A stretch of DNA of 64,000 nucleotides from positions 48,670,001 through 48,734,000 of the forward strand of contig OX597825.1 of the NCBI GenBank assembly GCA_951406725.2, read 5' to 3'. The position numbers and the translations under genes were made by a program. The DNA is from Octopus vulgaris (Eukaryota). Positions 5,204 to 51,899 of the stretch are shown here, in pieces; the stretch's first letter is position 1; each line of letters starts with the position of its first letter. Under the pieces are notes generated by a model that saw only the letters and a list, made by a program, of their open reading frames with translations, ran no database searches and had not been told where the DNA came from.

Positions 5204-7630
5204 CTGTTTGTGTCTCAGCTAGTCAGACGTGCATTTTTCGTTCTGAGGATTACTTGCTTTCTGTGTGGAGTACCTGTTTAAACTGTCTCTTGTATTCGGA
5301 TTATCACCTGCGAATATTTTGTGACGCCTCTCAGAGCGGGAAGGTAAGAAACATTCTTTGAAAACTTTTAGTGGAAAAAAACTGAACTTTATTAAGCCGT
5401 TTTAGGGTTTTTGTTGCACCCGCCCCCAAGTGGGGGAGATGATTGGAATTACTATCTTTTGTTAGGCTTCGTGGAAGCTATATTACGTTTTTTTCTGAAC
5501 ATTTAAAAAAATATTATTATAAGTTTCCACTTTTGTGGAAGTGATACATTTGTTTTTTGTGTAAACGAATTTATTTTGAACCGGTGTAAAGTTTTACAAA
5601 GAACCCCGCTCCCAGTCGGGGTAGTACTTGGAACATTATCCTCGCTAGAAGGAAAAAATATTTTCTGTCTTGTTTCTGACTTTGCTAATTTCGGGCGAGT
5701 ATGTCGGTCGAGATTATCAGAGAGAAATGTACCCTCGAAGAGGGAGGTGTCAGTGTGGCAATGATGCTACTACTGCTAAGAAGTTTGCGCCTTTTGCAGT
5801 CGTTGCAACAGAGACAATTATTATTCCTCTAGAAAAATTAGAGGAATAATTTAAGAGAATGTCGGAAGAGGTTGGAGACATTAAGACATCGCCCGCCTCC
5901 AACGAAATAGAGAAAAAAAGAAAAACTGTGTTATTCAAATCGTTCTGCACAGAACATAAAAGATTCGGGCATTTCGATAAGGAAAAAATTGAAAAGTGTC
6001 TGGCCCCTGTGTGGAAAGATATTGTTTATGTCGCCAGGGGTCAGACGTATGCCTCTATAGAGGTGCAATTCAGAACCGAGGAATTGGCCCACGGGTACTC
6101 GGTGAGTCCACGGAAAACAGAAGAAATGACACTTCTACCAGCCTACATGGGGAGACGGACTTCTCGTGTAAAGGTAACAGAAGTGTCATCAGAAGTCGGT
6201 CCAAGGGAGGTGATGGCTGCACTTTTGTTTAACAGGCAAGGGAAAATTAAGTTCCAACAAATTACATGCTCTGCATCCCAGAACTGACTGGGGCAGAGCA
6301 TTTCAGCTATCATTCAAGGGGCACCGGAAGGTATTTAAATGACTCCGGATCGGGTACTCGTGGGGGAGAATGTGGCCCTTCAGATACAGGTGGAAGGGAA
6401 GAAACCTACCTGTTATGAATGTGGAAGGAAGGGCCACTTTCGTTTGAATTGTGAGGTAAGGAAGCAAAAAAAAAAAAAAGAAAAAAGGACAGTATTGTAC
6501 AACACCAGGCTCTACATCTGTGAAAAACAACCCCAAGCCCACACACACACCAGCCCCCACAAAGACAAATACTCCCACACCCTCTGTTGTTGTGCCGCCC
6601 CACAAACAAACAAACAAAAAGACCTAACCCCTGCATACAGAAGACTCCACAATAACAAAACCTCCACCATTTTGAAACCTGTGGCACCAAGTGATAGTAA
6701 AAATATGACTCTCCCTGACGACACGATGGAGGTGGCAGAGGGGGAGTTTACAACAGTTCGGAAATGAACGCACGTGCCTTCCTACATCCCCCACAAAAGA
6801 AAACAACAGCACGTCACTACACATAACAAAAACAAAACCCTGCTCCCCCAAGTAATATAAAAACAAGAAAAATACTGACTGAGTATAATACAAAAGACAG
6901 CTATTTGGAGGAGATCATTACAAATCACCATACGACGGAACTTTTCCCGCAACAAAGGGATATGAAAAAGAGGTGTTCCTGGACAGGGGAAACACTATAC
7001 AAACAACTTAAGGAGAGGTGTCCTAAACTTATTAGAAGAATTACGACCCTACCAGCGTACTTAAAAAAAGGAGGAGGAAGGCGCTGCGCCGCGTGTAATG
7101 AGGTCAACCCCAACATCACCAGTCAAGGGTAAGTAGAACCCTTGTTTTTCCCCTTGTTTTATGGCTTTGCTTAACTTGGGGTGCTTGAAGGTGCGTGGTC
7201 TGAGCTCGAAGTGGAAGCAGGCCTGTTTCCTCGATGACCTCAGATCACATGATATACAAGTGATGGTTGCTACAGAGACTAAGCTGGACAGTCTACAAAC
7301 CTTCTCATCCCTGCTGAATGGCTATGAGAAAATCATGTCTCCAAGCCAGACCTAGCCAGTGGGCGTAGTAGTACTCGTCCGAAAAGGCTTGTCTCTGCAA
7401 ACAAGTACAGTCTATGTGGACCCTGAATGTGGCCTAGTCGTCCTTGGTATGACACACAGCGGTAAGGCCTTCAGGTTGATCGAAATCTACGCACCCTGTG
7501 CTAGAGGATTACAAACTGATTTTTATCGGCGCCTGGAGAACTTTCACGTGACGGTTGTGTTAGGAGACTACACGCTATCGTTGACGCACACGTCGATAGC
7601 ATAGTCGTCCCAGAGTGGACCTGGATGAGT
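5204..7630 (+). mobile_element. Tx1/L1-clade LINE, 5' part (ORF1 with CCHC knuckle and start of ORF2 APE endonuclease), decayed
   Basis: ORF1 pieces 5859-6767 include CYECGRKGHFRLNC; APE N-terminus at 7161-7604 (LNLGCLKVRGL...ETKL...IYAP...LGD); stops and frameshifts present. Confidence 0.85.
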
Positions 7631-20884: not shown

Positions 20885-20885
<1 letters not shown>

Positions 20886-22865
20886 CACTAGCCATTAACA
20901 AAGTAGCACCAACAATTATAAAATTCATAGGGCACTCTATGAATAAATGGCAAACAGTGCTACAGCTACAAACAAAAAAGGGACTCATGAAAACCAACGC
21001 CATCCCCATTAGAAGAGGAATATTCCAGGGAGACACGCTCTCCCCACTCCTTTTCTGCTTGGCACTGTCACCTCTATCTGATATGCTAAATAGAACTGGA
21101 TGCGGATATAAATGTTACGGCAAAACGATCAGCCACCTTTTATATATGGATGACCTAAAACTATACGCTGCAAATGACAAACAGCTGGAAACACTATTAA
21201 AGACAGTTCATGGATTTACCAAAGAAATAGATATGAAATTTGGATTAGAAAAATGCGCCAAAGTAACCATGAAAAGAGGAAAACTAGTTAAGAGTAGCAA
21301 CATCACACTAGATAAAACCAATGAAATAAAAGAATTAGACCAAAGCCAAACTTACAAATACTTAGGAATCCATGAACTAGATAAGACACAACACACACAA
21401 ATGAAAGAGAAAATAAAAAAAGAATATTATAGACGAGTTAGATCAATACTAAAAACAGAGCTCAATGCTAAAAACAAGATAATAGGTATTAACACTTTAG
21501 CTGTCCCAGTTATAAGTTACAGCTACAATATCCTTAACTGGACACTAAATGAACTGACCAAAATAGATAGGAAAACAAGAAAAATAATGACAGGATCTAG
21601 GATGCATCACCCAAAATTTGACATAGAAAGACTATATATACAACATATAGAAGGTGATAGAGGCCTTATAAAGCTGGAAAACTACTATAGAATAACCACC
21701 ATAGGACTGCAAAAATATCTACTTCAGAAGGAAGGAAAACAAATAGCGGCAAAACTCGAGCAAAACAAAAAACTGTTCTCAGTATTTAAGGAAACTGACA
21801 AATACAAACAAGAAATCATACCACCTAATAAATATGAAGAAGAAGAAGAAGAAGAAGAAGAAGAAGAAGAAGAAGAAGAAGAAGAAGAAGAAGAAGAAGA
21901 AGAAGAAGAAGAAGAAGAAGAAGAAGAAGAAGAAGAAACAACAAAAGCTATAAAACAAATGAAATCCAAACTAAAAATAGAACAGCAACGAACCATGATA
22001 ACACGATGGCCAGAAAAGCTCCTTCATGGTAAATACTGGACTAAACTAAACGCAAAAGAAATAGACAAAGAAAAATCCCAGCAATGGTTGAGAAGCTCAG
22101 GACTCAAAGCAGAGACAGAGGGATTTTTAATTGCAGCACAAGACCAAAGCCTCCACACCAGAAATTACCAAAAACATGTAATGAAAAGAAATATAACAAG
22201 TAACTGCAGAATATGTGATGGACAAGAAACAATAAATCATATTATCTCTGGCTGCCCAGTCCTGGCTAAGAAGGAATATATTCACAGACATGACAGAGTT
22301 GGAACCTACATACACTGGAAGCAATGCCAACATTATGGAATAACAACAGAAAAAAGATGGTATAGGCACACACCAGAAAAGGTCACAGAAAACGAGAAAG
22401 CAGCCATACTCTGGGATATGCCGATACACACAGATAGAGAAATTAAGGCCAACAGACCAGATATAGTTGTCAGAGATCATGAAGAAAAAAATGCTTTCTA
22501 ATTGATGTATCAATACCGGCAGATGACAACGTGTCTCTAAAAGAAATGGAGAAACTTTCAAAAAACAAAGACCTGGAAATAGAGGTAACCAGAATGTGGA
22601 ATCTAAAAACAGAAACAATTCCTATCATAGTAGGTGCATTAGGCGTAATAAAAAAAATATTCAAAAAAATACATAACAAAAACACCAGGACTTACAAACA
22701 CATGTAACATACAGAAAATTGCACTACTAGGCACTGCACACATCCTACGCAGAACACTTTCCATACAATAACCATCAGAGCATCAAAACAAATCACAGCA
22801 TATACCTAAGGCACACAAAGCTGCGCTCGGTAGTGAAGTGAAAGCACGCTATAAAAATAAAACTA

Positions 22866-22870
<5 letters not shown>
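20885..22870 (+). mobile_element. 5'-truncated R4/Dong-type RLE LINE in (TAA)n
   Basis: RT (GIFQGD, YMDD), CCHC (CRIC...H...C), RHD and RPDIVV RLE motifs; flanked by (AAT)n. Confidence 0.9.
20939..22501 (+). pseudogene. RT-RLE ORF fragment (520 aa) with in-frame poly-Glu; frameshifted near the C-terminus
   Basis: ORF track; the RLE continues in another frame to ~22770 (IDVSIP...QKIALLGT). Confidence 0.85.
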
Positions 22871-22918
<48 letters not shown>

Positions 22919-22950
22919 TAATAATAATAATGATAATAATAATAATAATA

Positions 22951-25142
22951 AACTAGCTTACCGTGCGCACACGGTAAGCTAGTTCAGCTGCTCAATGGAA
23001 TTATGAGAGACCCAAAGAAAACACCTGAATGGTTAGCAAGTGGCATTACTTACCTACTCCCAAAGAATAACGAAACCAACCTTCCAAAAAACTATCGGCC
23101 TATAACCTGTCTATCCACCACGTATAAAATCCTAACATCTATCCTGGCGGAGAAGACATATGCATTCATGAAGAAGAACGATATTTTCCCCATTGAACAA
23201 AAAGGGTGCCGCCGAGGCTCTTACGGATGCAAAGATCAACTGCTAATCAATCGTATGATCCTTGAGAACTGTCACAACAAGCGCAGAAATCTCAGCACCG
23301 CATGGATTGACTATATAAAGGCCTTCGACAGTATACCGCATCCATGGATCTTGAGATCGCTGGACATCTTCAAAATTTCCCCTGTGATTTCAAACTTCCT
23401 GATTTCATTTTATATGGATGACTTAAAACTTTATGGTAAAGACAATAATGAACTTGAAGGCCTATTGCGCACCGTGAAAGCATTCAGCGATGACATCGGG
23501 ATGGAGTTTGGACTTGAGAAGTGTGCCAAGGCCACTTTCCAGAAAGGGAAAGTGAAGACCACAAATTCAGTCGTGTTAGATGTTGACACAGTCATAAGAG
23601 AGCTTGAACAAGAACAAACATACAAATATTTAGGGATAAATGAAGGCTCTGGTATTCAGCATGCAAGCATGAAAGAGAAAATCAGGAAGGAATGTTATAG
23701 GAGAGTTCGTGCAGTCCTGAAATCTGAACTAAATGCACGTAACAAGGTGTTAGCTATAAATTCCCTAGCAGTTCCAGTTGTTACTTATAGCTACAATGTG
23801 TTGAAGTGGAATATGAGTGAAGTAAAGAATATAGATAGAAAAATACGCAAGCTGCTGAGTTGTAATAGGATGCACCACCCAAAGGCAGACGTAGATCGCC
23901 TTTACCTTCCCAGAGCCCAAGGAGGTCGAGGCCTGATCCAATTTGAACTAGCTTACAAAACAACCACAATTGGACTGGTCAAATATCTCGAAATATCGAA
24001 TGACTGGATGCTAAAGCTCGTGGAAAATCACGAGAGACGAAAGAAGCTTCATTCTATCATCAAGGAAAGCAAAAAATTTGCTATTGATCTCGTGCAGGAT
24101 ACCCAAACTGAACAACCCGAGGGAAGTACGGCAACTATTGTTGCAAAGAAGGTGAAAATGATGGCAATGAAAAAAGCGCACGAGCAATTGGCTGATAGGT
24201 GGGAGGAGAAACCTCTGCACGGCAAATATGTGACCCGCAGCAAACAAGCTGATGTTGACCAGAAGCAAACCCATCAGTGGCTGCGGAGCTCAGGGCTAAA
24301 AGCAGAGAGCGAAGGTTTCATCCTGGCTGCTCAAGACCAAAGCCTATCAACCCGGAACTACCAGGCCAATGTGATGAAAAATGGAGCAGACCCAAAATGC
24401 CGATTCTGCAACGACATGATTGAAACAGTGGACCACCTAATCTCTGGATGTAAAGTCTTAGCACCAGTGGAGTATAAATTAAGAAATGACAGAGTTGGCC
24501 AATATCTCCACTGGCTAATAAGTCGGCATTACAATATCAAAACTGCCGACAAGTGGTATAATCACCACCCTGAGGCTGTAACTGAAGGAGAAAATGTAAC
24601 CATTCTGTGGGACTTTCCAGTACATACAGACCGAAACATCAAGGCCAATAAACCAGATATTGTTGTGAAAGACCAAAACAATAAAGTTTGCTTATTGATC
24701 GACATGAGCATCCCCTGTGATCATAATATCTCAGCGAAAGAGTTTGACAAGCTCAGAAAATATAAAGACCTACTCATTGAAATTGAGAAAATGTGGCATC
24801 TCAAGGCGGTTACAATACCAGTGATCGTAGGAGCACTAGGAATGATCAAGAAGGGAACCGAAAATTATATGAGAATGATCCCTGGCTTACCATCCCTGCA
24901 AGAAGTGCAAAAGATTGTCTTAACTGGTACATCACACGTATTGAGAAGAGCATTGTCGATGTGAGAACTGTTGCTGCTCATGTATTTTAATTTAACTTTA
25001 AAAAAAAAAAAAAAAAAAAAATGAACGAACTACTGAGTTTGGTTTAATGGCCTACCAATATACACTATGAGTTTCTTTGCCCTATGAGTCGGGAAGACAC
25101 TCGGCAAGAAATGGAAGAAAATTTGAAAGAAGAAAAAAAAAG
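22951..25142 (+). mobile_element. Second 5'-truncated R4/Dong-type RLE LINE (different family) in (TAA)n
   Basis: RT, CRFC...H...C and KPDIVV motifs; 3' UTR ends in (AAT)n. Confidence 0.9.
23003..24964 (+). pseudogene. RT-RLE ORF (653 aa), 5'-truncated, with an in-frame RT deletion
   Basis: KNYRPITCL and KAFDS are followed by ISNFL|ISFYMDD, so the QGD motif region is missing. Confidence 0.85.
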
Positions 25143-30757: not shown

Positions 30758-33012
30758 GGCCGCCATACTGTGAAGTAACGGAAATTGGGTGCTCTGTAAG
30801 TTGAAAAAGTTTTTGTAATCGTTTCGGCCTTCTAAGGCCCCATCTTTTCATTTCTGTTGTTACCATTACATTTCGGAGATTGTCTGAATTGTGCAGATAG
30901 TATTTTTATGTAGAAACACCCACTGTTTCGCAGGAAGTGCGCGTAAATAATTTTAAAATTTTAACTGCTTTCGGCAAAAACAAATATTTCGCAATTTTCT
31001 GCAATTTTTAAAGATGGCTGATAAAGAAGCCATTATGATGTTCGATAAAGGAACGCGCTCCTTGAGAAATTTTGAGATCAAGGAAAGAAATGAGAATATT
31101 ATCATCGAATGGCCTAAATTTAATGACGTTACCGGGGCGAAAAATATTTCGTCTCTAAGCAACGTCAAAACTTCAGGGGTCGACAAAGAGAACAACAACA
31201 GCAACAGCAGCAGCAGTGACATCAGCAGCAGCAGTGACAGCAGCAGCAGCAGCAGTAGCAGGAGTAGCAACAACAACAATAAAAATAAATAAAACATAAA
31301 AATGCAAATTTCGCACCTGTTTCTTTTGCGTCAGTGGCGAGAACTATGAAGTGCTTCCACATAGATGAAGAAGAATTAAAATTTGCTAGAAAAATTGTTA
31401 AAAGAGATGGAAGAAGGGTAGCTCTAAATCCTTCATCAGACGTGATAGAAAATATCGCAAGATGTACGGTCACATACCATTGCATCAGAATCAGGTCTCG
31501 GTGGGTGGAAAATGCTCCCGAGAGCGAAGTACAAAAATGCCTTGGGCGCGTGTCGTAACAAAAGACCCACATCACATGAGGAAAGAAGTTTGGAACCTTT
31601 GAGGTGAGATTTAGGACGGAATAAGAAGCTCGATGCTATTCCGCAATCACTTTGAAGAATGACAACTTTTCTTAATCCCCAGCTAGCGTGGCCAACGTCT
31701 TTCCATGGTTAGGGTGCTGAATGTGCTACCAGAAATATCAATTACCTGGTTAGTGGAACCGTCCTTGGCAGGTTTAGAAGATACAATACTGGAAGTCAAG
31801 AAACTACCTAAGCACAACTGCGGAAGCTGGATGTTTCGAGGGGCATCCCGCGGGAACTGAGATGCGGAATGTTCGTATCGGTGTATACGGACGACGTCAC
31901 TGTGATAGTGTCGGACATCTCGGAAATAGAGATAGTCAACACTCCCCTAACGGAATACGAAGCGGTGACCCAGGAGAAGTCAGTGGACCTGCAGCTCGGC
32001 ATCTGGAGAGGCATGACCATGCCAACCGACAGTGTTGTGGGGCGTTGGATGGAAGGACCTGTTACATTACTCATGGTCTGGTTCGGTCCGGATCGAGGTG
32101 ACAGACAGGGTGGCCAATTTCACCCAGAAATAGGCCGAGAGGAAGCTGTCCATGAGAGGAGATTGGTGGAGAGCAAGAGCGATGACATACGCGGAGAGGA
32201 CCTGGGTGTCGAGGGGGATCAACTGGCTGGTCTCTTCCGGAGGACTTTCGGACCGGGAACTATGGATACTTCCAGAAATCCCTGGTCTGGCCGTGTTACC
32301 TGGGGGCGCTGCCTGTTCGAGATGAGCTCTACAAGAACGGGTATGCAGTCAGTTGGGTTTGTGCGAGATGCATGGGAAGCGATAAAACCGTTCTACATGC
32401 TCTCCGACATTGTCCGTGCATTGCTGACTTGTGGAGCTTTGTAGAACAGTAAGTGTCACGTGTAGGACGGATCCGGCTATCGTCTGAGTCCATTGTGAAG
32501 ATCGCCCCGCCTTTTTCCTTTGGCCAAGAAGGGAGGGCATTTGCTCTCTATCCGGTGGCTATGACAAAAGAGGTTGTGTGGTGGATGCGATTGAAAGAGT
32601 TGAAGACGAGTACTTTCCTCTTTAGCCCAGGCCTATTGAATTTTTCAGATTCTACCAGAAAAGGAAAGTGAGGCTAGAGAGGGTGGTACTATCACCCAGT
32701 AGGTTCGTTGAAAGGTGGATGCATGTGGAAATAATGGCCCGCTTGAATGGGCCTACTCTAAGTGAGCACCCGCAGGTCGGATGGAACGGAGAAGAGAAGG
32801 GTGCCTTCCTGAGGAGCCACTGATGTTAAGGGGGCCGAAGGGCGTGAGGTCTCTTTTGGTCACCTTAAGGGAAACTTCCTTTTACTGGTGAAGCATATTG
32901 TTGATTTAATCATTTTGTTAATTGTTGTGTTTGTTTTCTGTTTACAAGCTTAACCTTACTGTCCCTCGTCTGTGTATCACCTACTAGGTTTTATGTTTGA
33001 CCAATAAATAAA
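30758..33012 (+). mobile_element. Internally deleted Tx1-like LINE between (ATT)n tracts
   Basis: ORF1 piece ALNPSSDVIENIARCTV; RT YTDD and post-RT motif LQLGIWRG...GPVTLLMVWFGPD shared with 47678-48130; AATAAA at the 3' end. Confidence 0.8.
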
Positions 33013-33026
33013 GTATTATTATTATT

Positions 33027-33420
33027 GAGTGAGAGAGCAGTGCATGCCATCAAAGTGACACTGGGGTAAAATATACGAGCCAATATACCCATCATGACTA
33101 CCCGTCTGATAAGGGTACACAGGACATGCATCACAACCATATGGCCGACATGGTGGTCTCATATCAAGTAAGCACGACCCGGTGGCCCAGTTAGAATTTT
33201 CTTCAGGTTTAGTAGCCCATCCCGCTCAAAAGGTCCCTGAATAAGGGTTGTTTAGGATGTTGAAAGAACCACCATGTTTGAGGTGAATTATTCAAACCCC
33301 AAAGAACCTCTCAACACATGGCTATGATTCACTATTGTTGATGAGATGACATTCTACCTAGACATGCTCAACTGGTTATGGTCAAGCAACTGACAACAAA
33401 TCTGTGGTATTGAGCAGAAT
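33027..33420. repeat. Unclassified ~400-bp element between (ATT)n tracts (possibly a non-autonomous retroelement)
   Basis: Non-simple block bounded on both sides by (ATT)n; no coding motif recognised. Confidence 0.35.
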
Positions 33421-38702: not shown

Positions 38703-41700
38703 TATGTCAAGGTCACTTTCGAGTGCTACTTGTAACATGTAACCCAGCACAACCTGTTGCATGGTCGGGTCATCGGTGACTAAACCGGCAACCCCACCAA
38801 GCTTGCTTGGTAAGGAGGGTGTTTATTGGACACCCTACGGGATGAAAAGCAAAACACGTCAAAAGGCGGAGGAACTCTTGAGAGTCAACGGCCATCCAAT
38901 AAATATCTTAAGGATGTATCATGCGCGGGGACATAGAAATAATCGGACCGAATACCCGATCGCGCGGTTAAACGATTGGGAGTGAAGGACTCCTAGCCTT
39001 TGTTAGCGCATCCTTCTAGGAGAAGGTAACTCAGGTAACTGGGATAACACCGACATAAAACCTGCGGCTCAGTGGTTACCGATGATGTTGACTTGTTCTT
39101 CTTTTCGGATTATGGCTGCTGTCGCTTAGTGACTGGGATTGACTCAGTGCACAGCCTTTCCTCACTTAAAAAAAAATCTTCTTGTACAGGCATTGCACGA
39201 TAACAACATTGATTGATTACATTTATTATCTAATTCATGATTGTTGATGGCGCTGTGAGTCTCAACTGAATGGCTGGCTGTAGCCTTAAAAAGCAAAAAA
39301 TCAATAATGTACCAAAAGAATATAAAAATAAATGGCAGTAAGGACTCTGGAACCACATCAGCTGAAAGAGTCTGGCCCGGCAGGGGCTCCAGAGCATCAC
39401 AGTCTGAACCCGGCCGTCATCATTCTACTGTGATAGAACCAAAGAAAATATTGAATATTGGCTGTTGGAATGTACGGACATTGCTTGACCGCAAGTCCTC
39501 TGAATGTCCTGAAAGAAGGACTGCGCTTGTTGCGAAGGAGCTTCAACGCTATGATCTTGACATCGTTGCTTTATTGGAGACGAGATTACCTGGAGATGGT
39601 CATCTTACAGAATCTCATGGAAAATATACATTCTTTTGGAAAGGGAGGAATGAAGAGTTTAGAGGAGAAGCTGGAGTGGCCTTTACTGTTAGGACTACTC
39701 TTGTAGACAAGTTGGAAGAATTCCCAGTCGGAATTAACGAGCGTCTTATGTCCATGAGAGTTCCTTTGGTTAAAGGAAATGATATGATCTTGGTGAGTGT
39801 GTGTGCTGCAACTATGTGCTATACTGATGACGAAAAACTTTCTTTCTACCATGCTTTGAAGGGCATTATAAGAAATATCCTTCGGGCAGACAAAGTCGTC
39901 GTACTGGGTGACTTTAATGCTAGAGTGGGTAGGGATTTTAACACGTGGACTGTAATTGGAAAGCATGGGGTGGGGAAGTGTAATAGTAATGACATGCTTT
40001 TGCTGCAGATGTGTGAGGAGCTACGTCTGTGTGTTACCAATACCATGTTTCAACAAAAGAATAAGTTTAAGACTATATGGATGCACCCTGCATCTAAAGA
40101 ATGGCATATTCTGGATTATATCCTTGTTAGGGAGCGTGACAGACAGAATGTGCAGTGTGTTCGTGTTCTTCATGGAGCTGAGTGTTGGACTGACCACCGC
40201 CTAGTAGTGCAAAAGTGAAATTAGTCACAAAACATAAAATCTGAGCTGCAGGGATTACCCTGCCTAAAAGACTGAATGTTGATCGTCTTAGGTGTAATAG
40301 TGTGAAGAGAACTTTACGAGAGGAAATGAATGCTGTAGATATTGGGGAGGATTGGCCGATCCTTAAAAAGTCAGTTTATGATATAGGCAAGAAAGTTCTG
40401 GGATTGATACAAAGAAAGCATCAAGATTGGTTTAAAGAAAATGATGAACATATAAATTATTTATTGGCTGATAAAAGACGTACTTTGTCACGCTATTTTT
40501 CAGCAAAGCCACAAGAAAGAGAAGTGTTGCATAGGGAACTAAAGGACGTAAAATCACGTGTGAGGCAAAGGCTCTCTCAGATGAGGGATACGTGGTGGAG
40601 TAAGAAGGCTGATGAGATACAGGTGGCATTGGATTCCAATAACACAAAGCCGTTGTATGGTCTCTTGTGAGAAATTTATGGACCGACGTCTTCCCTGATG
40701 ACACCACTTCGAAGCAGGGATGGTAAAGAACGTCTTCGTGACTCACAAGGAATTCTGCGAAGGTAGCAAGAACACTTTGATGAACTTTTAAATCAGCAGT
40801 CTGTAGTTAGTGAGGATGTTCTCAATCTCATCCCTGGATTACCTGTGAAGGCAGCACTCGCAGAACCACCAAAGTTGGAAGAAGTTGCAGTGGCTGTCTC
40901 AAGGTTGAATAATGGGAAGTTTCCGGGTATGGATGGCATACATGTGGAGTTGTTACAGCATGGTGGTGAGAAACTTCTGCAGAAACTTCACTCTTTGTTT
41001 GTTAAGATATGAACTAGTGAATTAGTACCTGAGGACTGGAGAGATACAGTAATGGTGGTCCTGTATAAGGGAAAGGGCAACAGGAATGATTGTGGTAATT
41101 ATAGAGGAGTATCATTGCTGTCTGTCGTAGGAAAGGTTTTATGCAGGATACTTCTGGATCGTCTGCTGAAATACGTTGCAGATTTGTGTTCTTCTAGAAA
41201 GTCAATCTGGCTTTCATGTGGGACGTGGCACTGCTGATATGATCTTTTCACCTAGACAGCTTCAGGAGAAGTGTGTGGAACAGGGTCTGGATTTGTATCA
41301 GGTTTTTGTCGATCTGACAAAAGCCTTTTATACCGTCAACAGAAAAGCATTGTGGAAAGTCCTCCAGAAACTTGGGTGTCCTGAAAAGTTCCTTGCTTTG
41401 GTTAGGTCTTTTCATGAAGACATGGATGGTAGGGTGAATGTTAGAGGGTAAATGTCGGAGCCCATTTCAATACAAAATGGAGTAAAACAGGTGGATATTC
41501 TGGCACAGACCCTATTTTCCATATATTTTGCGATGGTGTTCTGTATTGCATTCAGAAACTGCAGATACGGTGTTTACATCCATTATCGGACCTCTGGCAG
41601 CATATTTGATATCAGATGCTTTGCTGCGAAAACAAAGGTATTTACCTCTATCATGAGAGACCTTTTGTATGCTGATGATTGTGAGCTAGTAGCACACACA

Positions 41701-42926
41701 GAGATTGATATGCAACACATTTTGAATGCTTTCTCTGATGCTTGCACTGCCTTAGGATTGACAGTCAATCTCAAGAAAACTGTTGTCATGCATCAACTTG
41801 CCCCTGGTTGTATAGTGTACCAAATATCTATGTGTATGGTAAACGGCTTGATGTAGTTGATCAGTTTGTCTACCTGGGAAGCACTATTAATAGATATAGC
41901 AATTTGGATGATGAAATTCCTTATAGAATTAGGAAAGCAAGTGTTGCTTTCGGAAGGCTAGAAAAGCGCTTCTGGAGTCGGCGAGATATATGCAGAAAGA
42001 CAAAGATAAAGGTGTACAAGACATGTGTGCTCCCTTCTCTTCCCTATGCCTGCGAGACGTGGGTCACATATCGATACCACCTTAAACAACTGGAACGTTT
42101 CCATCAGATGTGTCTCAGACGGATCTATGGAATTAAGTGGAAGGACCGCATCAATGATCTTGAAATATTGGAAGGCTCTCGGTGTGAAAGTATAAAAGCT
42201 CTTGTGTTAAAGCAAAGGCTCAGATGGAGTGGTCATCTGGTCAGGATGAAGGATTCAAGGATGCCAAAACAACTCTTTTATGGAGAGTTAGCTAAAGGAG
42301 AACGACCTCCACATAAACCAAAAAAGAGATATAAGGACTTGCTGAAGGCTTCCTTAAGAGATGCTTGCATCTCTCCTGACACATGGGAAGGCATAGCTAT
42401 TGATCGTAGCAGGTGGAGAAGAATTGTGCACGAGGGGACAACCACTTTTGAGAAATCTCGAGTTGCACATGAGAAAGTAAGGAGAGATGTCAGGAAGGGC
42501 ATCGCTGTTACACTTCCAGATGGGAAGGGTCTTCCTATGATGCTGACATGCAGTGTCTGTGCAAGACCCTGCCTCAGTAAAGCTGGACTCAAGAGTCATC
42601 TTCGTAGTCATAAAGCGAGACAGATGAGTGACAACCTGACGGCAGTGTTACTGGTGGCAGTGTTACACACCATACCAATCATATCTGTCAGGCATGTGGA
42701 AGAGAGTGTAATTCGGCAGGAGGACTTAAACGACATGCAAAGGTACATGAAGCCCAGTTACAACTACAGCCGGCTATTGCCGGTAAAGGTTTTAGTTGTC
42801 AATTCTGTACAAGACATTGTAGATCTTTAGCTGTGCTAAAAAGTCACATTCGATCACAGCACCAGTAACAGTTAAGCTTCGTGCAATGGCCATACTCGAT
42901 AACGAGTGGGCAGCCATAATAATAAT
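38703..42926 (+). mobile_element. Near-full-length RTE-clade LINE, inactivated
   Basis: ~600-bp 5' UTR; APE (GCWNVRTL, LGDFNARVG, TDH); RT (NYRGVSLLS, DLTKAF, YADD); C-terminal C2H2 fingers; (TAA)n tail; several stops and frameshifts. Confidence 0.95.
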
Positions 42927-42982
42927 GTATGTATGTATATATGTATGTATATATGTTTATGTATGTAAATATATATATATTC

Positions 42983-43771
42983 TCCTTTACTTGTTTCAGT
43001 CATTTGACTGTGGCCATGCTGGAGCACCGCCTTTTAGCCGAGCTAATCAACCCCAGGACTTACTCTTTGTAAACCTAGTACTAATTCTATCGGTCTCTTT
43101 TTGCCGAAACGCTAAGTTACGGGGACGTAAACACATCAGCATCGGTTGTCAAACAATGTTGGGGGACAAACACAGATACACAAACATATACACAAACTTA
43201 CATATATATACAAATATACGACGGGCTTCTTTCAGTTTCCGTCTACCAAATCCACTCACAAGGCTTTGGTCGGCCCGAGGCTGTAGTAGAAGACACCTGC
43301 CCAAGGTGCCACGCAATCGGACTGAATCCGGAACCATGTGGTTCATAAGCAAGCTACTTACCACACATCCACTCATATACTCTTTTACTCTTTTATTTGT
43401 TTCAGTCATGTGACTGTGGCCATGCAGGAGCACCGCCTTTTAGTCGAGCAAATTGACCACAGGACTTATTCTTTGTAAGCCTAGTACTTATTCTATCGGG
43501 CTCTTTTGACGAACCGCTAAGTTACGGGGACATAAACACAGCAGCATCGGTTATCAAGCGATGTTGAGGGGACAAACACATACACACACATAAATATATA
43601 TACATATATACAATGGGCTTTTTTCAGTTTCTGTCTACCAAATCCACTCACAAGGCGTTGGTCGGCCCGAAGCTATAGTAGAAGACACTTGCTCAAGGTG
43701 CCACGCAGTGGGACTGAACCCGGAGCCATGTGGTTCGTAAGCAATCTACTTACCACAGCCACTCCTACGCC

Positions 43772-43852: not shown

Positions 43853-43965
<113 letters not shown>

Positions 43966-43974
43966 TATGTATAT

Positions 43975-44186
43975 ATAAACGCATACCACATATTTAGTTT
44001 AGTCGTAATATCTTCGTCACATGTTTCAACAGCTAAAGGCAAATACACAGCAGTTACTGTGGAGAAAAAATCTCTCTTATGGTAAAAAGGTGTAAAAAGG
44101 AGTGTCGCCCTCTCTCAGGAATCTCAGACATCGATGTTTCGAGTTTATTGGTTCTTGTCGATGAGATGTACCTAAGAGATGATTCT
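43975..44186 (-). repeat. HHR repeat copy A (partial)
   Basis: Homologous to 46258-46580 and 51584-51834. Confidence 0.85.
44121..44167 (-). ncRNA. Type I hammerhead ribozyme, variant core (copy A)
   Basis: Minus strand: atctca-TCGACAA-gaaccaataaactc-GAAA-catcgatg-TC-tgagat. Confidence 0.7.
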
Positions 44187-46256
44187 TTATTACGATAATT
44201 ATATATCATACATAGATGGGACGAAACAGGACGTTACAAACAAATAGTATGAGTCCTTTTTAAAGTGGTTTTTAAAATATGATGATGAATGATATATTTT
44301 AAAAATTTACAAATTTTATATGAAGCCCAACCGCTACACCATACTTTTTTTTTTAACCATGGATGAGATTAATTTCCTTACCACATCCTTCCATCTTTTC
44401 TCGAACATACTTCGCGACAGGTGTCTTCTCTCCAGCCCTATCTTGCTCTTCAGATGATATCTGAAGTATTACAGCAAACCAGGGCCGGAGATGAAAGTTT
44501 CCGTCTCGACTCCTTTCATTCTAGTTTTCCATATACACTGTTTCAACACTGCGACAGTACATAAAAAAACATGCCTCACTTTTTCGTTTAGGTTGTACGT
44601 TTTATAAACAACCATTCTCGTAGCTAAGTTACGTACAATTTCCTGCGTGGGGAGCAACTTCGTATCATTTCCGTTCTTTTTAACGAGATTTTTGCACTTA
44701 AACAATCCAGCCGTCGTCACCTCTAGCGTTATCATATTCGCGCCCACAGTGGCCGAAAAAAGGGGTCCCTCCCCAAACACTTGCTCCGCATCACCGGCTT
44801 CCCCGTCCGGCACCTTCTCCATTTCCGGAGAATCCTCCCCAGACAACACGTTGAACTCCACAATGCAATTCTAGAGAAAAAGGAATTCCTTCAAAAGGAA
44901 TCGAAAAATTACTCGTGACAAAAAATAACCCTTGCCAAAACTACCCACAAAAACAATACTTTTCACCCTGCAAAGGGCAAAAAATCAAAGTGTTCGAATC
45001 ACAAAAAGTTCAATAGCAGCCGCTTCTAAGAAAAATCCCACCGCCTTCCTTGCTTATTTTCTTGCGTTCTTTCTTGTGTAACTTCTTTTGTCTTTTCTTG
45101 TCATTTCAGTTCTTGTTTCTCTTTTTCTCCCGTCTCTAGCGGTTCTTTTGGGGAGATGCTTCACTCTTTTTTTCTTTAGGCTTGCATTCAGAGCGGACGT
45201 GGCCCTTTTCGCCGCACTTAGAGCAACGTGGCCTACGCCCCTCTACTGCAACTCTCACAGTCAGCCACTCCGCCATGAATACCCTATCGGGCAGCCCTTC
45301 TAATACTTCAAGGGTAGCTTGAAGCACGACCTTGAGGGTCTGCCACTTTCAATTTTCGGCCTCTTTCATTTTCATTTGTTAAATAGCTATTTTTTCCTCC
45401 ACATCATATGTTATGACTGCTGCTATCCAAATTATGTCGTATCCTGCTGGTAGTTCTTCTACGTTTATTTTTGCCGTTCTTCTACCCAAATACGTTGTTA
45501 GTAGAATTATTTCTTCATTTTTTAAAAAGTTCTTGTTGATAACTATTTAGCCGTGTTCTCATTAGAAAACTGTGCTTCTACCATGGCATTCCTTCTACCA
45601 CGTCCAACGTACACAATTTTCTTCCATGTAGGTGCCTGACACCTTTCAATTATTTCACAGTTGTAAGTTAAAATTCTTTTTTTGTTTAGGTTGTTCGTTT
45701 TATAAACCACTGTTCTCGCAGCTATATTTTCCTGCGGAGGGAGTACGAGATTTCTGTACTTAAACAATTCAGTCATCGTCACCTTTAGCGTTACCATGTA
45801 ACCGCCTACGGCTGCTGAAAGACTGGTTTTTCCCCCAAACACTTGTTTTACATTATCATCTTCTCCGTTTGTTACTCCTTACATTTCTGGGAAATCCTCT
45901 TTAGACATTCCGTTGAATTCCATACTGCAACTTTACAGAAAAATAAATCCCTTAAAAAGAAATATACTAATGACAAAAATATTTTGACGAAAAATAATTT
46001 TTGCCAAAGAAAAAAAAATTTTATCCTGCAAAGAGTAGGAGTTTAAATCACAAAAAGTTCAATAGCAGTTGTTTCCAACAATATTAAAACAATTCACAAT
46101 TTTCCGCCCGCAGAGCGAAAATAACAGTCATCAGATTAACAGCTGTTCAAATTTCAACAGGTACAACAAACAGTGCAATAACTAAGAAACATTAGAGAAT
46201 AACAGATAGAACTCACAAACAAGCAGCAGCCAACACCGAGATGTAGCTACAAGATG
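44187..46256 (-). mobile_element. Tx1-like LINE remnants: a 5'UTR+ORF1 copy followed by a second partial 5'UTR/ORF1 fused to an ORF2 3' end
   Basis: ORF1 at 45543-45842 and CSKCGEKGHVRSEC at 45136-45327; second 5' UTR at ~45030; fused ORF 44469-44861; AATAAA at 44186-44191. Confidence 0.85.
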
Positions 46257-46257
46257 C

Positions 46258-46580
46258 AACTAATATAGCTTATAGCTTTATATATAATTCAGCCAACACA
46301 TTGACTAGTAGATCGCCTGATCAAGAAAATTATCGGAGTAATGGCGCTTAGCACTGTTTACGTATAATCACAATTTAGGTTAGTTGAAATATGTTTGTCA
46401 CATGGTTCAACTACAAAAAGTAAATATACTCCAGTTACCGGGGAGAAAAAAAGCTCTCTCATGGTAAAAAGGTGTGAAAACACCCCGTTCGTTCAGTGTC
46501 ATCCTCTGTCTGGAATCTTAAACATCGATGTTTCGAGTTTATTGACTCTTGTCGATAACATGTACCTAAGAGATAACTCT
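46258..46580 (-). repeat. HHR repeat copy B (complete spacer between two LINEs)
   Basis: Contains the HHR, a tagttgaa..ttcaacta hairpin and a TATA-like tatataaag near the 46258 end. Confidence 0.9.
46515..46561 (-). ncRNA. Type I hammerhead ribozyme, variant core (copy B)
   Basis: Minus strand: atgtta-TCGACAA-gagt-caataa-actc-GAAA-catcgatg-TT-taagat. Confidence 0.75.
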
Positions 46581-49500
46581 TTATTTTGATAATTTACATC
46601 GTATACAGAAAAGGACAGTACAGGACATTACAAACAAATAGAGCGATTATGAGTCCAATTTAAGATGTTTAAAAAAAATCGGATTGTTAATATAGCATTA
46701 AAACATTTTGTACTTTTTACAGACACACCATGACAGTGAAGTCCAACGTCTACACCTTACTTTGACCACGAATGAGATTAAGTAGGATCAATCACACCCA
46801 ACTTACTTGCTACATCCTTCTATCTTTTCTCGAATATATTTCGCGACAGGTGTCTCCTCTCCAGACCTATCTTGCTCTATCTTGTGAAGTATTACAGCAA
46901 CCCAGGGCCGGAGATGAAGGATCCTGTCACAAGCCCTTGCATTCTAGTTCTCCACACAAACTCTTTCAACACTGCAACTGTACACAAAAAGCATGCCTCA
47001 CCTTTCTTTGGTAGCTCTAATCTTCCTAGATGCGACAATACGTGTTCTACGTAAATTATCGAGCCCGAAAGCTCTGAGCACTGTACAAGAGCGTGCAGGA
47101 CGGTTTCATCGTCCTTCACGCATCTTGGGCATACAGGTGGCACAGATAACACGTTCCTATAGTATTGCTAGGTCAGGCATTTTTGGTAGTTATCCAAGTA
47201 CCCTGGCTAGAAAGTTCTCTGAAACAGGTTGGCTAGCTGGTTCTCATCGAGTCCCAGAGCACGTCCCAGGACCTCATCACTCTTAAACTCTACAGGCCTT
47301 TATAAAATACCGAGGTGGTATTCCTGCTGCCGGCCTTGCTCACCTTGTGGATTAACGCAAGTGCCTCTCGGCACTCCTTTTGCCATTCAGTCGTATTACA
47401 TCTTTTAAACAAATCGGGTATAAATTCGCCCAAGGAGGACGATTGTGGAAAGAATTCCTCTGCAAGCGAATTCAACAACTAGCCACCATCAAGAGATGCC
47501 TTACCCTCAATGCATGCCTGTGCCTGCACATCATTAACCACGCCTTCCCTAACTTACCCTTTAGCGGTTCTTGGCAGCATACGGAGCACCTCACAAGCGG
47601 CTTTCCTCCCCTCCACATCAAGCGGAAGAGAAGGCGTGCTATCTTGCTTAGCTACGAATCAGAGCAAGTCACGAAGGTCAGACGGTAGGTGATAATAGAT
47701 GCAATAAACACCTGCACCACTTACTCCCTCTCTTGCAGGGATAGCGCCTCCACCCTGCTGTCACCTCGCTCTGATTATTCTCCTTCTGGGAATCTGGTCC
47801 GAACCAGACTCCAAGCAACTTAACAGGGCCATCTGTCCAGTGCCCCACGACACTGGACGTTGTCGTCTTTCCGCTCCAGGTGCCGAGCCGTAAGCCGATC
47901 GACTTGTCTTTGTTAACCGCCCCGTATCCTTTGATTGCATCCTCTACACAAGGTAACTGAGTTTCATTGGACGTCATCTGCATGAGCAGAAACAGACTTA
48001 CTACATCAGATTTCATAAGGGATGTCCCCAAACTCTCCAACTTCTGCAACAATGGCTCAAGAGCCAGTACATACAGAAGCGGAGACAGGGGGCACCTTTG
48101 CCGAATCGAGCGCTCGATCTCAAACGGCACTAACAGGTAACCGTTTATCTGGACTGTGGATTTGATGCCATCATAAATGGCAATGATCCAACCACGGAAG
48201 TCCGAGCCTAGCCCAGCCGCATTGAGGACCGCTGCCAGGTACCGGTGTCTACCTTATCAAACGCTTTACTCTGGTCTAAATCGACCAGTACCTCATCTTA
48301 ACCGGATAATTTACCAACCATGTCTAAGGTGTAGCGTAAGAGATGAAGATTGTCCTGGGATGGCGTTTCTCCGCGACACGCGTCAACGTTTTTGCTAGCA
48401 GCTTGGCGAAATTCTTTAACTCAACATTAAGTAAAGTTATAGGCCTGAAATTACTAATATGATACCCTTTGCTCGGGTCTTTTCTGATCAGGGTCACCAC
48501 TCCCCGACTATGAGATGGGAATCATCCCATCTTGCTGCCAGTTTGTGTAGACGCAGGACAGCAAGTGTCCGAACAAGTGCGGCACACTACGATAAAATTC
48601 TTAGAGCAGACCATCCAGCCCCGGCGATTTGTCCCCGGCACACTCAGCCAGCACCTCTTCGGCTTCCGCAGCTATAATCGGCCCTTCACAGCAATCTGCC
48701 TCCCGTGCCGAGAGTCACGGTCCACCGGCAAGGTAATTCTTTAGGGACTCACCACGGTCCAGCATCACTCTCCCCGAACAATCGGGCGAAATGCTGGTGA
48801 AAAGCCTTTTGCATCTCTTCCTGTCCTTGAATCGTATGGCCATGTCCGTCCGTTAAAGACTTGATAGAGGCTTCTCTGTCTCTCCGGCTCTTCACACGAC
48901 GTGGCCATCCGGAAACGTTAATACCTTCTCTCCCTACCGCACGTAACTAGCCCTGTCTCTACACCCTTCGTGTTTGGCTTTGAGATGACGGAACAAAACC
49001 GCTTTCGCTGCCATCACTCTGGATGAAGTGCCAGATTTCAAGGCCTCCTCTAATTCCTTAATTAAGTTCTCTTCTATACTAGTCTTCTCTAAACTTAGCC
49101 GATTATTAAATCTAATAGACTCAGAATAAATGGCTCGCTTGAGAGCGCACCACCACCTATTATTAATGATGGCGCCGATTAATGCCATCTGCAATAACTC
49201 CTTAACCCGAGCACGGAAGGTTTTCAAGTCAAAATAGACTTGTTCATCTTCCAGCTTATCTAGGTACACCTCGCACGTCACAAACATGTGATCCGTGTAA
49301 GAGACACAACAAAAGCGTGAACATCTAAACGTATTCCTATCTCTATCTCTAACAATTATCCTATCTAAATAAGATCTGTGTGAACCGTCGTTATTAGCCC
49401 ACGTCCACTGTGGAACGAGCAGTTCATTCAGTCTATATCGGTCTGCTAGGTTATAGCTTCCTAGTAGCCTTTTGAAGGCAGGATTTCCCCTTTTATCAGT

Positions 49501-51470
49501 CGATCCAACAGAATCCACCCGTGCGTCGAGAATAGTGATAAAGTCTCCTAATAAAACTAGAGGTTTTGACGTCACTAAAAGAAGCTCTACAGGTCCCGGT
49601 AAAAACCAGCTTGTCTATACTCTTTAGGAGCGTAGACAGCTACCAACTCGGACAGCTTAGTTACATGTATCATATTCAAAACGACCAGCTTACATTCTGG
49701 GTCCAGAAAGACTGTACTTACCTGTACGTCCAATTTTTTTGAATAAGACCACTACGCCCACGCCTACCCGCCGACAAGGAGAAATAATTTTGTCGTAGCC
49801 ATTTAGAAGACGCGAGAACGCTTGTGGCCCGTTCAGCTTGGACTCAGTCACGACACATACATCAATGTCCAGTAACCTAAGTTCGCCCAGGAGACAAGTT
49901 TGTTTCCATTTCGATCCCAGGCCACGTGTATTTATACACCCTAACTTAATCTCCATAGTAAAAGTTTAATTGCATTTTAAGTTTGGAGAGGGGCTGCACA
50001 AATATGGCATCATCCCCATCTTTTTCCTTCTGTGGTGTAGCCGCTGGGCTAAAATAAACCTTTTTTTCCCGCCATCTCCTGGCTTACATCATGAATGTCC
50101 GTGGGGTATCTTTCTTTGAACCCTTGGAACAGCTCCGCATCCATTCTCACCAAACGGATGTTAGGTGGCATATCTTGTATTATTTTATATACATGCGCCT
50201 TATACGTTCGAATGACTTAACATGGGAGTGGAGTGGGGAATTTTTTCTGTGTGTCTGTGTAGTTTTTGCTTATTTTCTTTGTCTGGAGAGGGAAGTCCGG
50301 GGTTTGGGCTTTTTTTCCTTATGTGTGATATGACCGTCGTAAATTCCATGTCCTCTTCCACCACAAGAGTTGTGTTTTCTAATGTTTTCTCTTGGGTATG
50401 CTGCTTCTCTTTGTCATTTTTTTCTTCTACTTTTTCTATTTCTTTTTCTTCCTTTTCTTGTTGTTCGTTCGTGTTATCTTTAGCATTTTTTTAGGAGGGG
50501 TTCAAATTTTTTTGTTTCTGTTTTTCGCACTCTCAGCGGACGTGGTCCTTTTCTCCACACTTGAAGCACCGAGGCCTACGTCCCTCGACCGCGACTCTGA
50601 CGCTCAACCCCTTCCCCATGAAAACTCTACCGGGCAGCGTTTCCAACACTTCGTTCGCTTGTACCAACATTTGGAGGGTCTGTCCCCTCCAATTCACTAC
50701 CTTCCTCTTCTTCATTTGTCGTATTGCCATCTCCTCCATATCATCGTACCCTGCTGGTATTTCTTCTACCGCTATCTTGGCGGTTCTTCGCCCTAGATAT
50801 GTGGTTAGTAATATAATTTCTTCGATTTTCAATGTTCTCGTCTATACCTCCTTTGCAATATTTGCGTTTTGAATTGTGCCTCTACAGTGGCGCTCCTTAT
50901 CCCACGTCCCACGTAGGTAATTTGGCTCCAAATTCTTCACGGGTATTATTTTTTTTCTTTTATGGTGAATATTTTCTCGCTATTAAACTTTTTACTGTCT
51001 CCTGCGGGGGCAGTAACTTGGTATCGTTACCATTTTTCTTGATTAAGTTGCGGTACTTGAAAAACTGTTCCATGGTAACATTCATTTCTATTAAATTTCC
51101 GTCTACAGCGACCAAAGAACTGGGTTTTTCCTTATTTCCTTTTGGTACTTTTCAACATTCTCTGACTTTTCCATCTCAGAGAAATCCTTATTTGATAATA
51201 AATTAAATTCCATTTTGTCAAAAATGGTTTCCTTCAATAGGAATAAACACACAAATTTTCAAAAATAAGTTGCCAAAAATGACAAAAATTAATATTTTTC
51301 CAACAAAGTACAATTTTCTTCCTCGTTGGGCGAAATTACCGTTCACAAAACGGTAACAGTTCAAATCCGACAAGTATATACAGTGTAACAAACAGTGCAA
51401 TAACAATAAACATTAAACAGAATGACTTCACAAAAGCAGCAGCAGCTAAACGAGACGTAGATTAGGGATG
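46581..51470 (-). mobile_element. Near-full-length Tx1/L1-clade LINE, decayed
   Basis: ORF1 with CFKCGEKDHVR; APE (GCINTRGL, LGDF, YLDRI, TDH); RT (SIRQRCPLSPLLY); C-terminal CPRC...ET..H; AATAAA at the 3' end. Confidence 0.92.
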
Positions 51471-51582
51471 CAACTCTGAATGAACTGAATAAAGCTTATA
51501 GCTTATTATATAATTCAGCCAACACATCGACTGATTTGCACTAGTAGATCGTCCGATCGAGAACATTATCGGAGTAATGGCG
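51471..51582 (-). promoter_or_regulatory. Putative TATA/Inr promoter part of the HHR repeat, upstream of the LINE
   Basis: Minus strand ttatataataagctataagctttattcagttcattcagagttg; equivalent sequence at 46258-46345. Confidence 0.5.
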
Positions 51583-51583
51583 G

Positions 51584-51834
51584 TCAGTTTGTTCAGAGTT
51601 GTCTCTCTTAGGTACATCTCCTCGACAAGAGTCAATAAACTCGAAACATCGATGTCTGAGATTCCCGAGAGAGAGCGACACTGATCGAACAGGGTGTTTT
51701 CGCACATTTTTACAATAAGAGAGAATCTTTCTGCACGGTAACTGCAGTGTATTTGCCTTTAGTAGTTGAAATATATTTCAACTAACCTAAATTGTGATTA
51801 TACGTAAACAGTGCTTAGCGCCATTACTCCGATA
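51584..51834 (+). repeat. HHR repeat copy C, inverted and without a LINE (empty site)
   Basis: tcagtttgttcagagttg is joined directly to tctctcttaggtacatc and the HHR. Confidence 0.85.
51616..51662 (+). ncRNA. Type I hammerhead ribozyme, variant core (copy C)
   Basis: atctcc-TCGACAA-gagt-caataa-actc-GAAA-catcgatg-TC-tgagat. Confidence 0.75.
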
Positions 51835-51883
<49 letters not shown>

Positions 51884-51899
51884 TATATATTGATATTGA

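Follow-up and report, generated by a model that had tools for sequence, protein, structure and literature searches.

Several long interspersed nuclear elements (LINEs) are known to reside inside other transposons, among them Tx1L of Xenopus in Tx1D, crocodilian Tx1-Mar in Mariner-N4_AMi, Tx1-8_Crp and Tx1-9_AMi, and transcription from the flank and hitchhiking were already raised in the same source (PMC4494074; this and the other papers are cited from excerpts). Keno, of the Tx1 clade, and Utopia target U2, and Dada-U1/U6 target small nuclear RNA (snRNA) genes (PMC4640811); the residence of Tx1 families in U2 or inside other transposons is in this sense already known. Here we describe a locus in a 64,000-nucleotide stretch of Octopus vulgaris DNA (the window; contig OX597825.1, positions 48,670,001 to 48,734,000 of the forward strand), in which decayed LINEs are joined to a repeat, R1, with a hammerhead ribozyme motif. 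In our reading, which we hold with a probability of about 0.72, these are old LINEs of the apurinic/apyrimidinic endonuclease (APE) type, Tx1-like, placed at a fixed R1 site approximately 8 nt past a predicted snRNA-type start, likely borrowing that promoter and spreading by the four-step model set out below.

As with Tx1L and Tx1-Mar, APE-type LINEs here prefer another mobile element, have target-site duplications (TSDs) and form tandem copies sandwiching a TSD; unlike those systems as excerpted, the host is a hammerhead retrozyme or pseudo-long terminal repeat (pLTR) and the site lies beside its predicted start (PMC4494074). The multicopy snRNA gene targets of Keno, Utopia and Dada also have a parallel in relatives of the window family in U2 and U1, although these relatives, unlike the elements in the described portions of PMC4640811, lie at +1 and change targets, some being in snRNA genes and others in retrozymes, and the window family itself targets R1 and not U2. 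R1 resembles the non-LTR (long terminal repeat) retrozymes and the pLTRs of Penelope-like elements (PMC7229834, PMC4209133, PMC8557442, PMC11167929 and bioRxiv 10.64898/2026.07.22.740005) in its approximately 300-bp tandem monomers, type-I hammerhead, palindromic helix III, U3-A8 variant, inverted arms, 30-40 bp tail and AT-rich targets. It differs from these repeats, as described in the excerpts, in having a resident LINE and no identified autonomous partner. The ribosomal DNA elements R2 and R1, not to be confused with the octopus repeats so labelled here, are co-transcribed with their host (PMC4494074). A LINE targeting hammerhead repeats was not found in the openly searchable literature, a scope outside which Repbase and subscription journals lie.

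The R1 insertion site and its LINE family

R1 is an approximately 340-bp monomer present in tandem and inverted arrangements. A search of the 2.8-Gb assembly returned at least 1,256 candidates, of which 40 were scored and 30 loci examined; among the repeat-first loci besides the window 3 of 27 held a LINE junction, empty R1 being far commoner than filled. Pattern matching and alignment of 32 copies indicate a type-I hammerhead motif with a 6-bp helix I, a 4-bp helix II and a short palindromic helix III, with a compensatory change in helix I in six copies, and R1 appears to be a retrozyme/pLTR-type unit. Rfam gave no match in the window and did not detect the hammerhead. The core is of the U3-A8 form, a variant described previously (PMC4209133, in excerpt), with position 4 mostly C, departing from the usual U. 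A C at this position was also seen in several hammerhead repeats (CCGACGA, TCGAAGA and TCGACAA, in the 3' flanks of L270, L272 and L273 and in R1 copies) and may be a tolerated natural variant. Microsatellite-adjacent R1 ends fall at positions 250-259 in 17 of 36 cases, the others at 190-249 or 260. In the window, inverted copy C terminates at the commonest end position (approximately 250) and repeat A approximately 30 nt short of it (approximately 221), a difference resembling the one-sided 30-40 bp Penelope-like tail (PMC8557442, as excerpted).

Read along the minus strand, the locus consists of the promoter part, LINE1, repeat B, LINE remnants and repeat A in that order, with inverted copy C beyond the promoter part and (TA)n at both ends, as an earlier note on this DNA had described (Table 1). 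Copy C does represent the uninterrupted site, both LINE 3' ends carry AATAAA and pass into repeat, and the hammerhead motif proposed in that note is recognizable in all three repeat copies. Its 5' junction (agttg|catc) had to be moved: the true junctions lie 19 nt further, after 51452 and after 46238. Alignment of empty and filled sites revealed a segment of 17-19 bp, reading C[A/C]TCTCTTAGGTACATCTC, on either side of the LINE and stopping one base before the hammerhead core. AGAGTT, taken earlier for the TSD, was rejected as a coincidence of one copy, since 12 of 17 tabulated 3' junctions read AAAGAAT and AAAGAGT is peculiar to window LINE1; in two other sequencing runs, too, most of the aligned contigs depart from the window letters at 46575 and 46577. 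The predicted cleavage site lies 55 nt after the LINE 3' end, not approximately 60 nt as first suggested. Contigs from two other sequencing runs span the LINE 3' junction, which speaks against an assembly artefact.

The two copies of the duplicated segment bear different changes. At base 11 of the 5' copy a G>C change was present at 7 of 11 5' junctions, versus 1 of 21 empty sites and none of 17 3' copies, whilst base 2 of the 3' copy was A at 16 of 17 3' junctions versus 1 of 21 empty sites. Judged from these alignments, the changes are a mark of common descent, the ends being inherited along with the LINE, and because the 5' copy bears LINE-linked changes it likely travels in the LINE RNA.

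When the assembly was searched with the 3' part of LINE1 alone, 512 candidates were returned and 40 loci scored; the 34 examined comprised 23 of family A with an intact 3' end, seven of sister family B and four without an end. Nineteen of the 23 family-A ends joined the R1 site, 18 passing into the repeat and one via the duplicated segment into another LINE, and the on-site copies other than the window were spread over 11 chromosomes. This is far beyond chance for one position of one repeat and bears out the proposal that the family is site-specific genome-wide for a hammerhead retrozyme/pLTR-like repeat; a majority of copies with unrelated flanks, which the earlier note had named as a finding that would count against it, was not observed. 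The remaining four ends lie at TC-rich or CATCT sites. The R1 site is shared by two additional lineages, L004 and L018. The two 3' ends in the window belong to different subfamilies, A1 and A2, with nearest copies elsewhere at 86% and 92% identity. One insertion followed by local tandem duplication was therefore rejected, the closest kin of each end being on other chromosomes. Six rows with short or interrupted 3' parts were left out of the tree of family-A and family-B 3' ends.

Intact relatives encode an ORF2 with Exo_endo_phos, RVT_1 and zf-RVT domains and an ORF1 with a CCHC zinc knuckle. Window LINE1 aligns to the ORF2 of an intact relative at 44-65% and its ORF1 zinc knuckle is recognizable, with the coding frames broken by many stops and frameshifts. 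The best match of solved structure is human L1 ORF2p (E 1.6e-66), which places the LINE only in the L1/Tx1 group. No named Tx1 protein was among the matches of the protein searches, and the closest named protein to the intact relative was from Argonauta hians (63% identity); the designation Tx1-like refers to domain order and behaviour and not to a tree. A search for look-alike stretches in other genomes returned nothing. In the 5' UTR (untranslated region), families A, B and Y all keep a hairpin whose tetraloop is C(UUCG)G or C(UACG)G (L183:1517-1540 and homologues); this hairpin, degenerate in the window (51336-51311 and 46121-46096, minus strand), is possibly a protein-binding or translation element.

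Related families and predicted promoters

A protein search for the wider LINE group gave 7,792 candidates, many with open frames of 1,000-1,170 aa. In family B, 19 of 23 distinct ends lie in hammerhead repeats R2, R2b, R3 or R4. Family Y1 occupies repeat R3y at 20 of its 30 loci, where the TSD is 17 bp long, and one older relative is at U1 +1; of 30 Y2 loci, five are at U2 +1 and 20 in hammerhead repeats. The Y2 copies in U2, R5 and R6 are near-identical, with end branches of 0.001-0.004 in a tree from which six rows with too little aligned sequence and L106, whose span is interrupted, were left out. Keno has its insertion site inside U2 and not at +1. In the young U2-inserted copies a 14-bp U2 duplication is followed by a leader that matches the beginning of repeat R6; on sequence grounds this suggests an RNA starting at the host +1 and a move of the element into U2 from R6.

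The hexamer ATCAGT was found 57-59 nt ahead of +1 in all five U1/U2 promoter types of the genome. A matrix built from these promoters scored highest at -56 to -59 in each of five repeat families, a match of sequence and spacing only. Relative to the predicted starts, family A would insert at approximately +8, family B at approximately +9 to +13; for Y1 and Y2 the insertion point would be the start itself. As U1, U2 and the repeat targets have the motif at equal spacing, their common feature would be a promoter-proximal position and the ribozyme is probably not the target. The promoter predicted by the earlier note upstream of LINE1 is recognizable and includes a TATA-like element, although it has the look of an snRNA-type promoter with a motif like the proximal sequence element (PSE) and is not simply a TATA promoter. 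An snRNA-type promoter has been reported for newt satellite 2 (cited in PMC2220036), and the motif and its spacing suggest that the octopus retrozymes use such promoters too.

Family Y3 (L189, approximately 1440-1510 and after ORF2; L193) lies in a multicopy flank and shows a duplication of approximately 17 bp, with a TATAAAAG box some 30 nt ahead of it, a placement that hints that start-site preference may reach TATA promoters. Family Y4 forms head-to-tail arrays of intact LINEs with a period of approximately 5,277 bp (nine copies at C9:59205988-59248884, and similar arrays), apparently without a host repeat.

Retrozyme/pLTR repeats are an added target class for site-specific APE LINEs. Near-identical elements, some of which retain intact open reading frames (ORFs), have switched targets in a natural series, and this makes testable the long-standing question of the respective shares of endonuclease, pairing of RNA with target and selection for a borrowed promoter in LINE target choice. 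More tentatively, and at odds we would place well short of even, a clade of start-site LINEs may retarget itself through host sequence on both RNA ends and spread by its own target-primed reverse transcription and a Penelope-type reverse transcriptase, with the repeats as stepping stones to U1 and U2.

Insertion, possible re-copying and competing explanations

In the first step of the model, the one that TSDs and truncated copies show, the LINE inserts by its own target-primed reverse transcription, duplicating 14-19 bp. The host promoter would then give an RNA beginning with the first approximately 26 nt of the host and ending just past AATAAA in host sequence, and these host-derived ends, together with endonuclease sequence preference, would direct new copies to the same site. 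Only copies landing right behind such a start would be transcribed and become masters, a selection that would explain the sister families at the starts of hammerhead repeats and of U1 and U2. Finally, as the structures suggest, Penelope-type machinery might sometimes re-copy transcripts of LINE plus repeat into (TA)n, starting at the fixed end of the repeat. On this view the LINE probably does not target the ribozyme, which would come along as a passenger of the host repeat.

Truncated copies that retain TSDs demonstrate direct insertion: off-target family-A copies L121 and L123 have TSDs of 19 and 16 bp at sites resembling the R1 site, and the young truncated L283 lies in its repeat array with an upstream half-site and a TSD. 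In family A the distances between LINEs and between downstream repeats were uncorrelated (Mantel rho 0.07, p 0.35, 15 loci, four rows with short or misplaced repeat parts left out), and A1 and A2 were each found in three repeat subtypes, assigned by eye because automatic labels were too loose. Five Y1 LINEs 0.1-0.2% apart lie in repeats 1.0-1.4% apart. Re-copying is suggested by other truncated copies. The upstream same-strand half-site was missing from 9 of 10 family-A copies and 17 of 18 family-B copies within the 8.5 kb examined upstream, and these copies retain the downstream repeat or its spacer, while the off-target family-A copies retain TSDs. A truncated LINE directly adjoins an inverted repeat arm in L136, and L280 and L286 hold 694 and 69 nt of LINE 3' end with repeat in one arm of an inverted structure. 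For a Penelope element in vitro, copying from the fixed end on both strands and use of uncleaved RNA are described (PMC11167929, as excerpted), and with this precedent the missing half-sites and inverted arms fit copying from the fixed end of the repeat on both strands; they suggest later Penelope-type copying of LINE plus repeat, and that such machinery is able to carry a 5-kb LINE as cargo. Truncated SINEU-3 copies, by comparison, were host-flanked on at least one side and independent insertion was concluded (excerpt of PMC4494074), unlike the octopus copies, most of which are without the upstream half-site and some of which lie in inverted arms. L295 and L296, 48 Mb apart on C6, share the same internally deleted LINE and inversion joint within unrelated flanks; either composite copying or DNA-level duplication would account for them, and they were left out as evidence.

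The missing half-sites and the LINE pieces in inverted arms are also what would be expected if the repeat were the integral LTR-like terminus of a composite element moving only as a unit, most truncated copies holding the downstream repeat to its fixed end. The earlier note had offered this alternative, and as a definition of the element it is contradicted by the excess of empty repeats, by TSD-flanked copies outside the repeat, by the lack of co-divergence in family A with its subfamilies in several repeat subtypes, and by a single LINE clade that spans several repeats and U2. As the sole route it conflicts with L121, L123, L283 and the U2 copies, and we regard it as very improbable; what stands of it is a second step, in which LINE and repeat were apparently re-copied together. 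Almost as hard to credit is that the ribozyme is the point, the LINE being retained upstream of the hammerhead since self-cleavage makes its 3' end. Neither the near-identical elements at U2 +1 nor the close relative at U1 +1 has a hammerhead, AATAAA is kept at the LINE end in all families examined, re-copied composites pass through an uncleaved ribozyme, the R1 core mostly has C at position 4, and in vitro hammerhead mutants of Penelope left insertion unaffected (PMC11167929, in excerpt). These observations outweigh the position of the LINE end 9-22 nt (families A and B) or approximately 26-33 nt (Y1 and Y2) ahead of the core, and the conservation of the hammerhead fold with its compensatory stem I changes. 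The ribozyme is probably neither target nor need.

A stronger competitor, though still an unlikely one, is tethering, in which a protein at snRNA-type promoters (SNAPc or the initiating polymerase) would bring the LINE and the cut would fall at a set distance, largely independent of sequence. Ty3 and Dictyostelium TRE5 insert at specific positions relative to promoters. The octopus LINEs would share with these and with the ribosomal R2/R1 elements a reliance on host transcription or a fixed place relative to a promoter. The enzymes and hosts are different, the octopus LINEs occupy a repeat that is mobile in its own right, and tethering is only a candidate. In its favour, clade B (100/100, star-like and young-looking) inserts approximately 9-13 nt past the predicted start in both R2 and R3, at sites little alike, and is likewise found in R4, and the promoter motif stands at equal spacing in all main targets. 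However, off-target family-A copies L121, L123, L034 and L040 lie at R1-site-like sequence, with no ATCAGT at the expected distance upstream of L121 and L123, the three Y2 targets have TT[T/C]ATCG in common so that sequence alone could suffice, and offsets in R2 differ between lineages.

Several observations weigh against our preferred reading of promoter-borrowing LINEs that are occasionally re-copied. In Y1 (12 loci) LINE and repeat distances do correlate (rho 0.71, p 0.002), which could reflect either shared age or co-copying, and half-site loss in old copies could equally stem from deletion at integration or later rearrangement. The samples are the best-scoring 30-40 matches per search and not full censuses. 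The R3y motif is weak (5.3 bits versus 9.8-14.5 elsewhere), R2, R5 and R6 are related, so that the five repeat families are not five independent tests, and +1 was placed by spacing, in R1 partly by the same spacing. Families Y3 and Y4, which are less specific or self-tandem, and several off-target copies are not at PSE-like promoters. Among 30 of 150 GIY-YIG loci, BLAST gave no link to an autonomous Penelope element carrying R1-R4-type repeats. An abundant young family (L151, L156 and others) with a 781-aa open frame containing a GIY-YIG domain is likely an active Penelope-like element; it too had no BLAST link to R1-R4.

Features of the locus and other LINEs in the window

Table 1. Positions of LINE and repeat features at the locus, in window coordinates
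Feature	Position	Strand	Remarks
(TA)n flank, direct end	43854..43977		
Repeat A	43980..44181	-	3' duplicated segment 44181-44163; hammerhead core 44161-44155; GUC 44129-44127; ends at R1 position ~221
Remnants of further LINE copies	44182..46237	-	
Remnant, 5' UTR and ORF1	46237 to ~45050	-	
Remnant, second diverged 5' piece	~45040-44583	-	
Remnant, ORF2 C-terminus and 3' UTR	44591-44182	-	Subfamily A2; AATAAA 44191-44186
5' copy of duplicated segment ahead of second LINE	46238..46256	-	
Repeat B, single R1 monomer	46257..46575	-	Hammerhead motif 46561-46515, core 46555-49, triplet GUU; one stem I mismatch; promoter partly deleted (PSE-like and start regions)
3' copy of duplicated segment following LINE1	46557..46575	-	
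LINE1, decayed	46576..51451	-	Subfamily A1; 5' UTR, ORF1, ORF2; AATAAA 46585-46580
LINE1 ORF1	~51213-50224	-	Zinc knuckle 50568
LINE1 ORF2	~49956-46763	-	APE, reverse transcriptase (RT) and zf-RVT by homology to intact relative
5' copy of duplicated 19-bp segment	51452..51470	-	LINE leader; LINE-linked G>C
Promoter half of R1	51471..51582	-	PSE-like ATCAGT 51535-51530; TATA-like 51512-51506; predicted +1 ~51477, placed by spacing from U1/U2 promoters
Copy C, inverted R1 arm, empty site	51584..51834	+	Segment 51602-51620; hammerhead core 51622-51628; GUC 51654-51656
(TA)n flank, inverted end	51832..51890		

Two more distant relatives of the same LINE group lie at 5799-7574 and 31289-33030 of the window, both on the plus strand, the latter ending in AATAAA and (TAT)n with no hammerhead repeat. 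Other LINE-type ORFs, with RT and zf-RVT and with an APE domain, are present at 20885-24964 and 39259-43413 (plus strand) and are unrelated to the R1-associated family; the 20885-24964 set is flanked by (TAA)n/(GAA)n tracts.

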